Origin: Escherichia coli
GTDB lineage: Bacteria; Pseudomonadota; Gammaproteobacteria; Enterobacterales; Enterobacteriaceae
Length of the DNA: 516 nt
Assembly (NCBI RefSeq): GCF_003334815.1
Contig: NZ_QOWO01000129.1
Reading direction: 5' to 3' (one strand)
The position numbers and the translations under genes were made by a program. The notes below the pieces were generated by a model. The model saw nothing but the letters and a program-made list of their open reading frames with translations. It had not been told where the DNA came from and searched no databases. This document shows positions 1-516 of this stretch, piece by piece. Position 1 is the stretch's first letter, and each line of letters starts with the position of its first letter.

Positions 1-113
1 TATGCAAGATTTGCCTGAACAGCACGATTCTGCATGATGTCGATTTGTGCGATTGCGTCCTTCTGCTGATCACCGGTTGGCTGATAAGTGGTGTTAAAAG
101 AAAATGCGCTCAT
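1..113 (-). CDS. N-terminal ~37 codons of a protein-coding gene (hypothetical protein); gene continues leftward beyond position 1
   Basis: ATG at 113..111 on the minus strand, preceded by AGGAGG (118..123) with a 4-nt spacer. An in-frame stop lies upstream at 149..147, so this ATG is the first start in the frame, and the frame stays open to position 1. Translation: MSAFSFNTTYQPTGDQQKDAIAQIDIMQNRAVQANLA. I do not recognise the family. The plus-strand frame 3 is also open over 3..131 but gives a Cys-rich peptide with no start, so the minus strand is favoured. The gene is absent from the supplied ORF track, presumably because it is edge-truncated. Confidence 0.55.
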   Translation of the reverse strand, partial: MSAFSFNTTYQPTGDQQKDAIAQIDIMQNRAVQANLA

Positions 114-117
114 GTTT

Positions 118-123
118 CCTCCT
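118..123 (-). promoter_or_regulatory. Shine-Dalgarno sequence (AGGAGG) for the minus-strand CDS starting at 113
   Basis: Plus-strand CCTCCT at 118..123 is AGGAGG on the minus strand, 4 nt upstream of the ATG. The spacer is on the short side but the SD core is perfect. Confidence 0.6.
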
Positions 124-143
124 GTGTTTAATGTTTTCAGCCC

Positions 144-158
144 CCATCACCCGTTGAG
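144..158. repeat. Direct repeat copy 1: CCATCACCCGTTGAG
   Basis: Matches 220..235 (CCATCACCCGTTTGAG) apart from one extra T. The copies start 76 bp apart, in the region upstream of the minus-strand gene. Confidence 0.8.
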
Positions 159-172
159 TTTCGGGAGCCGCG

Positions 173-188
173 GTTTTGACGTTTTGCG
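173..188. repeat. Tandem octamer GTTTTGAC-GTTTTGCG
   Basis: Two adjacent 8-mers differing at one position. The second copy starts the TTTTGCGG motif that recurs at 327..334, as a variant at 503..511 and inverted at 293..300. TTGACG (176..181) resembles a -35 hexamer, but I found no convincing -10 at 16-18 bp spacing. Confidence 0.55.
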
Positions 189-219
189 GGGACCTGCCGT
201 TTGTTCCCTCCGGTATTAA

Positions 220-235
220 CCATCACCCGTTTGAG
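220..235. repeat. Direct repeat copy 2: CCATCACCCGTTTGAG
   Basis: 15/16 identity with 144..158, with a single T insertion. Candidate paired protein-binding sites; function not established. Confidence 0.8.
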
Positions 236-292
236 AACCTTCGCCGCAAGGGGCATCACTGCCACGACCGGAAACGACTGTCCGGGGGCAGA

Positions 293-334
293 CCGCAAAA
301 GTTTTTGCCTGCTTTTGGGCAAAAAGTTTTGCGG
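293..334. repeat. 42-nt imperfect palindrome / hairpin-capable inverted repeat
   Basis: Arms 293..311 and 316..334 pair as 293-300 with 327-334 (8 bp), one G/G mismatch at 301/326, 302-309 with 318-325 (8 bp), and two G-U wobbles at 310/317 and 311/316, around a CTTT loop (312..315). That is 16 Watson-Crick pairs. No U-tract follows on either strand, so it does not look like an intrinsic terminator; an operator-type dyad or RNA hairpin is more likely. Confidence 0.85.
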
Positions 335-339
335 GATGT
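327..339. repeat. Direct repeat TTTTGCGGGATGT (left copy; partner at 503..516)
   Basis: Near-identical to TTTTGCCGGGATGC at 503..516 with one extra C. The two copies flank the GC-rich domain. The core CGGGATGT (332..339) is also the reverse complement of ACATCCCG (489..496). Confidence 0.75.
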
Positions 340-489
340 ACATTTCACCCCTGGACTGGCGGAGACGGTTGTGGCTGTCTGTGCCCCCGGCGACAGGGAC
401 TCATACGGGTGTGTGGCACCGGACACAACAACGGGCAGGGACCCGCCGCAACGACGAAGAGCGCGTGCGCGAAACGGCGTTGCCCCTCA

Positions 490-515
490 CATCCCGGCGG
501 CCTTTTGCCGGGATG
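490..515. other. GC-rich stem-loop (9-bp stem, 8-nt loop); function undetermined
   Basis: 490-498 (CATCCCGGC) pairs perfectly with 507-515 (GCCGGGATG), with 7 of 9 pairs G-C, around loop GGCCTTTT. The window ends at 516, so a plus-strand U-tract cannot be checked. There is no U-tract on the minus-strand side (the reverse complement of 480..489 is TGAGGGGCAA). Confidence 0.7.
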
Positions 516-516
516 C
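503..516. repeat. Direct repeat TTTTGCCGGGATGC (right copy; partner at 327..339)
   Basis: See 327..339. This copy also forms the 3' arm of the 490..515 stem-loop. Confidence 0.75.

Follow-up and report, generated by a model that had tools for sequence, protein, structure and literature searches.

Positions 158–475 of the 516-nucleotide stretch of Escherichia coli DNA analysed here (the window) very probably form a class 1 single-stranded DNA (ssDNA) promoter of the Frpo/ssi family, specifically the Frpo1 (ssiD, ssp1a) copy of an IncF-type conjugative plasmid. The element is an already known, well characterised and very common ssDNA promoter. By BLAST, positions 133–516 share 356 of 385 residues (92.5%) with Frpo1 of the F plasmid, which lies upstream of ygeA, and positions 113–516 share 348 of 408 (85%) with Frpo2, upstream of ssb; the two F sequences were given these names in PMC9849209. 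The copy in the window shows the homology, location, strand, structure, covariation and non-coding character expected of Frpo. Its function would be carried over from the identity to F Frpo1 and the context common to both.

At least 5,000 plasmid records match the window, mostly from Escherichia, Klebsiella, Salmonella and Shigella. Among the plasmid matches listed, 3,932 of 5,000 are typed as conjugative, and about three places per record are typical. Complete E. coli genomes carry a match in 3,472 of 5,426 cases, and 10,564 of the 10,676 places found in them are on plasmids. A search of a phage database with the window gave no match.

The genomic context was taken from near-identical plasmids, the window itself holding neither oriT nor tra genes. 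L001, the best-matching plasmid (98.6% identity), runs from traM through the oriT gap, an SLT-domain gene, a DUF932 gene, a gene for a 98-residue protein, the hairpin, hok/sok, psiA, psiB and a ParB-like gene to ssb, which has another copy of the hairpin directly upstream. This locus is the leading region of an IncF-type plasmid, in which some 2.3 kb separate the hairpin from traM and the oriT gap. The same leading-region layout is found in F and in a Klebsiella IncFII plasmid. In L001 and F each copy begins only a few bases from the start codon of a leading gene, for example ssb, and so do two of the three L003 copies. The third L003 copy (23306–23676) and the L004 copy (5630–6000) represent a third copy type, placed upstream of a DUF3560/methyltransferase operon. 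About 230 bp separate this type from the start codon of the nearest annotated gene downstream, a gap that may hold a small gene missed by annotation or a long leader.

In conjugation, transfer starts at the oriT nick with the 5′ end of the transferred strand, and the leading region comes next. Judged from gene order and strands relative to traM and oriT, the plus strand of the window is the transferred strand. The flanking genes are on the minus strand, and the transferred strand is therefore their template. Copies are co-oriented in nine of nine cases across four loci.

The features of the element, as predicted for the plus strand, are as follows.

142–489, plus strand: equivalent of the deposited F ssiD/Frpo sequence (D90178), collinear with it (Supplementary file 4 of PMC11541004).
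158–309, plus strand: 5′ arm of the hairpin (DNA fold, helix list and consensus fold of 11 homologues).
215–220 opposite 414–417, plus strand: 6-by-4 internal loop, the largest in the stem (helix list).
310–317, plus strand: apical loop TGCTTTTG, eight bases, between the A/T-rich stems 293–309 and 318–334.
318–475, plus strand: 3′ arm of the hairpin, to which positions 340–516 mostly correspond (DNA fold, helix list and covariation).
339–347, plus strand: nine-base bulge TACATTTCA on the 3′ arm (helix list).
490–515, plus strand: small hairpin CATCCCGGC-N8-GCCGGGATG, a perfect 9-bp stem of 490–498 with 507–515 (100% complementary in the inverted-repeat search).

Folded as DNA, the plus strand of positions 120–516 reaches −113.1 kcal/mol, compared with −74.3 ± 4.4 kcal/mol for shuffled sequences (z = −8.79); the minus strand of the same region reaches −104.8 kcal/mol (z = −6.20). 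The ssDNA fold and its helix list describe a single long imperfect hairpin of 318 nt, in which 158–309 are paired with 318–475; the published length of the Frpo stem-loop is 328 bp. The long complementary partners found by an inverted-repeat search are 186–214/418–446, 224–240/395–411 and 293–309/318–334, the last of which forms the apex and is 94% complementary. A 9-bp helix of 280–288 with 348–356 makes a −35-like sequence at 352–357 double-stranded. The CAT(T/C)T core of the bulge at 339–347 is kept in F-type, ColIb and Salmonella copies.

The sequence-only reading of this DNA had been concerned with positions 340–516, in which it saw several internally complementary segments and a candidate structured non-coding RNA. 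The long partners revealed by the inverted-repeat search have their 5′ members outside that block. Because the helix list pairs 318–475 with 158–309, the block is, in the predicted fold, the 3′ arm of the hairpin together with one small extra hairpin. When the block is folded alone and compared with dinucleotide-preserving shuffles, the z-scores are −1.16 (RNA, plus strand), −0.38 (RNA, minus strand) and −1.10 (DNA, plus strand); thus the control that the reading itself had proposed found the block no better folded than shuffled sequence, and the claim of internal complementarity does not survive. Neither do the boundaries. The element begins near position 158, and the GC-rich block runs about 185 bp past the end of the window, spanning 6350–6700 of L001 at 69–71% GC. 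The only conserved local stem within 340–516 is that of 490–498 with 507–515.

A short direct repeat, ATCACCCGTTGAG at 146–158 and ATCACCCGTTTGAG at 222–235, was seen along the 5′ side. The copy at 222–235 has its partner in the 3′ arm at 400–411, whereas the one at 146–158, which lies at the hairpin's foot, has none. Homologues hardly differ in this latter copy, which could pair with 400–411 instead.

The proposed pairing is kept in homologues. In an alignment of 11 sequences made for covariation (A1), 87.0% of the cells are standard pairs, compared with 43–48% when the 3′ partners are slid by one to three columns. Eighteen pairs are altered on both sides in a compensatory manner, and the covariation score was reached by none of 500 column shuffles. 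A consensus fold of the 11 homologues, run independently, again gave the long hairpin, along with the small one on its 3′ side. Both strands were folded separately in 15 homologues (eight IncF copies, one from Serratia, two from insect metagenomes, ssi1–3 of ColIb-P9 and one Salmonella variant), and all 15 favoured the transferred strand over its complement, with a margin of 7–17 kcal/mol. The aligned stems contain 108 G·T wobbles and 47 A·C mismatches on the transferred strand, a count biased towards G·T because the structure was derived from that same plus strand. A comparison of homologues for covariation had been among the checks suggested by the sequence-only reading, and it supports the pairing of 158–309 with 318–475 in a unit larger than 340–516.

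The insect-metagenome variants Frpo′ 5 and 6 differ at the apex (A1 columns 155–220), where the A/T-rich segment equivalent to 293–334 of the window is swapped for a short GC hairpin. The lower stem and the CATTTACCCTGGAC motif are retained. Since these variants replace the apex in this way, an A-tract apex is not obligatory in the family.

The composition of the block had been described correctly. Positions 340–516 are 66.7% GC, compared with 45.5% for the coding part (1–112) and 54.2% for 113–339, in agreement with the earlier estimate of about 67% and some 20 points above the coding sequence. The accompanying statement that there is no credible coding frame also holds. The open reading frames of at least 20 residues that overlap the block are only 28–56 residues long and all on the minus strand; none is kept in frame, length or strand among the 11 homologues compared, and the candidate peptides of the block matched no family in NCBIfam or PHROGs. 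RefSeq/PGAP nevertheless annotates in L001 a 68-residue hypothetical protein on the minus strand (window 137–343, L001 6137–6343) and, from window position 413 onward, a frameshifted pseudogene on the plus strand (L001 6413–6733). Since neither frame is kept among homologues, both very probably arose as artefacts of annotating GC-rich non-coding DNA. In F Frpo1, a single nucleotide is deleted within the 68-residue frame.

How the element may work can be set out by analogy, RNA polymerase binding, early expression, priming and silencing in the duplex all being drawn from published experiments on F and ColIb-P9. During conjugation the transferred plus strand would enter the recipient 5′ end first; the first genes would therefore precede the hairpin, whose 3′ arm would be the last part to arrive. 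With both arms in the recipient, the long imperfect stem would form and mimic double-stranded promoter DNA, with its stability supplied by the high GC content. Host sigma-70 RNA polymerase would bind this stem and transcribe the transferred strand towards lower coordinates, so that the gene for the 98-residue protein and the DUF932 gene could be expressed ahead of any complementary strand. The same transcript would be able to prime synthesis of that strand. Completion of the complement would then flatten the hairpin into duplex and turn the promoter off. A sigma-70 promoter scan of the linear sequence on both strands found no consensus promoter, which fits a promoter that is silent as duplex.

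The published findings behind this scheme are as follows. In the accounts given by PMC7690428 and PMC9849209 of the work of Masai and Arai (1997), the single-stranded Frpo stem-loop presents −35 and −10 boxes and binds host RNA polymerase, and the RNA made on it can be extended by DNA polymerase III. Deletion of Frpo1 abolished early YgeA expression in transconjugants and reduced transfer from 92.6% to 25.2%; the induction of leading genes precedes duplex conversion, after which they are shut off, and Frpo2 drives early expression of ssb, yfjA and psiB in vivo (PMC9849209). Transcripts from ssp1/Frpo prime conversion in vivo, and rifampicin-sensitive early conversion occurs downstream of ssp1a (Frpo1) and ssp1b (Frpo2) (bioRxiv 10.64898/2026.01.09.698686). 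The start sites of class 1 promoters have been mapped by 5′ RACE (PMC12672017), and Frpo regions are known to be GC-rich, Frpo1 having 58.0% GC compared with 48.2% for F overall (bioRxiv 10.1101/2025.04.03.647016).

The gene that would be transcribed first occupies the 5′ end of the window.

1–113, minus strand: 5′ part of the first gene downstream of the promoter, which encodes 98 residues in the full plasmid, with its ATG at 113–111 (L001 CDS 5817–6113).
117–122, minus strand: ribosome-binding site GGAGGA, 3 nt ahead of the ATG (read from the sequence).

The repeat common to paralogous copies begins at this ribosome-binding site. The 98-residue protein has no detectable similarity to F YgeA (95 residues); the product of the next gene, DUF932/YgeB, shares 98% identity with its F counterpart. 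The difference resembles a cassette-like exchange of the first gene behind the promoter. The variant with the 98-residue gene is present in about 880 of 4,160 matching E. coli records.

Under the promoter model, RNA polymerase would read the 5′ arm (158–309) as its template on the way to the gene. The 3′ arm in the plus direction, within 340–516, would then serve as the non-template strand. Three placements of the −35 and −10 elements were considered there (352–380, 390–418 and 339–344), none of which is near consensus in both hexamers. Two of them are described here.

352–380, plus strand: candidate promoter core, comprising the −35-like TGGACT at 352–357, 14 nt, TGG at 372–374 and CTGTCT at 375–380.
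390–418, plus strand: alternative candidate, comprising GCGACA at 390–395, a 17-nt spacer and GTGGCA at 413–418 at the largest internal loop.

The pair TGGACT/CTGTCT is the best candidate for the core, and this tentative placement could well be the right one. The insect and Salmonella variants show its geometry too, as do ssi1 and ssi2 of ColIb; ssi3 keeps the spacing without the TG. The equivalent region lies within the Frpo2 fragment that drives an anti-CRISPR gene (PMC11541004). TGGACT sits in the fully paired 9-bp helix, and CTGTCT in a partly mismatched stretch; on the other side, CTGTCT matches TATAAT poorly, and Frpo2-like copies have three extra spacer bases. It is less likely, though still conceivable, that polymerase would use GCGACA at 390–395 together with the internal loop at 414–417. 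F Frpo1 reads GTGACA where the window has GTGGCA, and the position of the hexamer varies widely among homologues and falls outside the Frpo2 fragment of the PMC11541004 construct. Use of TACATT at 339–344, in the nine-base bulge, as a −10 element is unlikely: it has no opposing template bases, a 9-bp GC helix lies next to it, and position 2 of the hexamer is variable among homologues. A further pair on the 5′ arm, TTGACG at 176–181 with TATTAA at 214–219, was rejected, the hexamers being 32 nt apart and pointing to the apex.

The observations on GC content, coding and structure can be set against other readings of the same DNA. The sequence-only reading was right in treating the block as non-coding, and the homologues show it to be conserved for nucleic-acid structure; where that reading appears to fail is in the molecule, which would be ssDNA, in the unit, which is only the 3′ arm, and in the families that it named. 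A stand-alone RNA acting as such (a retron RNA, a recombinase guide RNA, a ribozyme or a long leader) could account for a GC-rich, non-coding block in a strongly structured wider region, and a transcription start inside the stem would place part of the 5′-arm complement in the 5′ untranslated region of the downstream gene. This is nonetheless very unlikely. The Rfam search that had been recommended gave as its best hit a plant microRNA model, MIR8622, at 20.5 bits compared with a gathering score of 197; at permissive thresholds over the 1.7-kb parent neighbourhood only sok passes, about 650 bp away and beside hok, and the rest is microRNA noise. No reverse transcriptase or recombinase is encoded within 6 kb on either side in L001, which argues against the retron and guide RNA families. 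As RNA the block folds no better than shuffles on either strand, and the strand that folds better in every one of the homologues is the template and not the RNA-sense strand. Under the promoter model, moreover, most of 340–516 would lie upstream of the start and would not be transcribed from its own promoter. A protein-coding origin for the block, either as the small hypothetical proteins of PGAP or as the start of a high-GC gene, is scarcely tenable. It could draw on the RefSeq annotations in the near-identical plasmid and on the long open frames in the extended GC-rich DNA, but such frames are expected in DNA of 70% GC, base pairing and not codons governs the substitutions, and the lack of any retained frame, the deletion in F Frpo1 and the absence of family matches all stand against it.

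The hairpin might also be mainly a structural barrier or processing site, one that stalls complementary-strand synthesis or that terminates, insulates or triggers RNase processing of transcripts from the upstream operon. The ssp2 hairpin of F does stall DNA synthesis at the base of its stem (bioRxiv 10.64898/2026.01.09.698686), the element here lies between two co-oriented operons, and extra small hairpins 3′ of the main stem recur in the F-type, ColIb and Salmonella versions. As the principal role, however, it is hardly credible. No stem is followed by a T-run, so none is a canonical intrinsic terminator; the delay in conversion has been placed at ssp2, ssp1a and ssp1b being early transcription-dependent conversion starts (bioRxiv 10.64898/2026.01.09.698686); and the promoter activity of Frpo1 was demonstrated directly by deletion (PMC9849209). 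A barrier function is possibly better viewed as a secondary role than as a rival. There is next to no likelihood that the element is a dispersed palindromic repeat (MITE-like, or a recombination hotspot) devoid of a function of its own. An imperfect inverted repeat of about 320 bp, present two to eight times per plasmid and at 10,676 places in E. coli genomes, has the look of one, but almost all of those places are on plasmids, the copies of one locus are all in transferred-strand orientation, neither target-site duplications nor association with a transposase was seen, and compensatory changes preserve the pairing. The balance thus favours the class 1 ssDNA promoter.

The 3′ side of this promoter carries additional conserved elements. 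The hairpin at 490–515 lies just outside the deposited ssiD and is conserved in all F-type copies; it corresponds to helix 12 of A1, which is 98.9% paired, with one compensatory pair and several G·T changes. Salmonella variants carry ATGCCGGC..GCCGGCAT at its site. No T-run follows the stem on either strand, the sequence that follows being CCGGGAGC on the plus strand and TGAGGGGC on the minus strand, and because none follows, 490–515 is not a standard terminator. Its candidacy as an intrinsic (Rho-independent) terminator was rejected, and the terminator scan did not report it; that scan of the window found one terminator-like site, at 447–434 on the minus strand, which is no more than shuffles give.

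The paralogous repeat unit extends to the equivalent of window positions ~695–738, about 200 bp past the window end. In L001, positions 6517–6760 (window-equivalent 517–760) contain a AGCGCAGGTCACGGCGCGACAG motif, which ColIb ssi3 also has, and a GCGACCG-GAA-CGGTCGC hairpin. Also in this stretch are a block of some 90 nt that is almost invariant and a simple-repeat tract rich in purines. The region past the window is weakly structured, with z-scores of only −2.2 and −1.7, and a second strong hairpin there was rejected on these values. In the Klebsiella copies (L003 a and b; A2 columns 66–82, L001 ~6550–6566) the loop of the GCGACCG-GAA-CGGTCGC hairpin reads TTC, so that the entire palindrome is inverted when compared with the E. 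coli copies. The minus strand of L001 6587–6787 holds an unannotated open frame of 66 residues with a hydrophobic N-terminal half and a conserved C-terminus (...FPGVPLAGRAVVNGASEAVSALAGFHP). A comparison of this frame with protein families gave no match. Of eight copies checked, seven keep it open in spite of numerous indels, and the other is without the anchoring motif; the sense strand is pyrimidine-rich, and the openness of the frame is therefore weak coding evidence.

The small hairpin, the AGCGC..GGCGCGACAG and GCGACCG-GAA-CGGTCGC motifs and the ~90-nt block always accompany class 1 promoters on their 3′ side, as read on the transferred strand. A functional unit larger than the published Frpo of about 328 nt, with the 3′-side elements as an undescribed accessory module, is a doubtful proposition. 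Possible roles for such a module include a loading or pausing site for the complementary strand, an insulator separating one leading operon from the next, and the end of an unannotated gene for a small hydrophobic protein.

Comparison with known systems places the element closest to F Frpo1 (Frpo, ssiD, ssp1a), with which it shares its leading-region place by DUF932/ygeB and oriT, its strand, the long imperfect hairpin and the small 3′-side hairpin. The two differ in the downstream gene, YgeA being encoded there in F and the unrelated 98-residue protein in the window, and by about 29 substitutions or indels, of which the internal loop at 411–415 has several. Frpo2 (ssp1b) has the same fold and the same repeat unit, including the ~200 bp beyond the window, at the identity given above. 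It drives another operon, upstream of ssb, differs in the sequence of the upper stem, and has three extra bases between the −35-like TGGACA and the conserved TGG-CTGTAT. The class 1 elements ssi1–3 of ColIb-P9 (IncI1) have the same apex core, GTCCGGGGG...CAAAA(G/T)TTTT...CAT(C/T)T..CCCCTGGAC, a long transferred-strand hairpin that is 14–17 kcal/mol better than its complement, and small GC hairpins on the 3′ side. In contrast, their lower stem is unrelated and their main hairpin is shorter, at about 229 nt, so that the apex core alone is common to them and the F type. Binding of RNA polymerase to the single-stranded form, a fixed start and priming are known for F Frpo1 and ColIb ssi3 (PMC9849209, PMC7690428, PMC12672017, bioRxiv 10.64898/2026.01.09.698686).

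More distant systems use the same principle. The class 2/3 ssDNA promoters (ssp2/“Frpo3”, and those upstream of ardB, klcA and M.EcoGIX) are likewise transferred-strand hairpin promoters active only before the duplex is formed, but they have no sequence similarity to the window, and ssp2 is in addition a replication roadblock resolved by UvrD. In rolling-circle sso sequences and the M13/f1 minus-strand origin, host RNA polymerase also primes on folded ssDNA (PMC7690428 and general knowledge). Those origins serve in priming only, whereas Frpo transcripts are additionally mRNA.

The present copy adds nothing new to the picture of Frpo. It does illustrate how such DNA is handled: annotation pipelines still call it “hypothetical protein” genes, very likely wrongly, Frpo hairpins are absent from Rfam because they act as DNA, and scans for GC-rich blocks devoid of open reading frames will keep rediscovering them. 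The conjugative plasmids that use Frpo include most IncF resistance and virulence plasmids. For these plasmids, Frpo-type elements explain the expression of establishment genes, those for anti-SOS and anti-restriction functions among them, within minutes of entry and before the transferred strand has become duplex.
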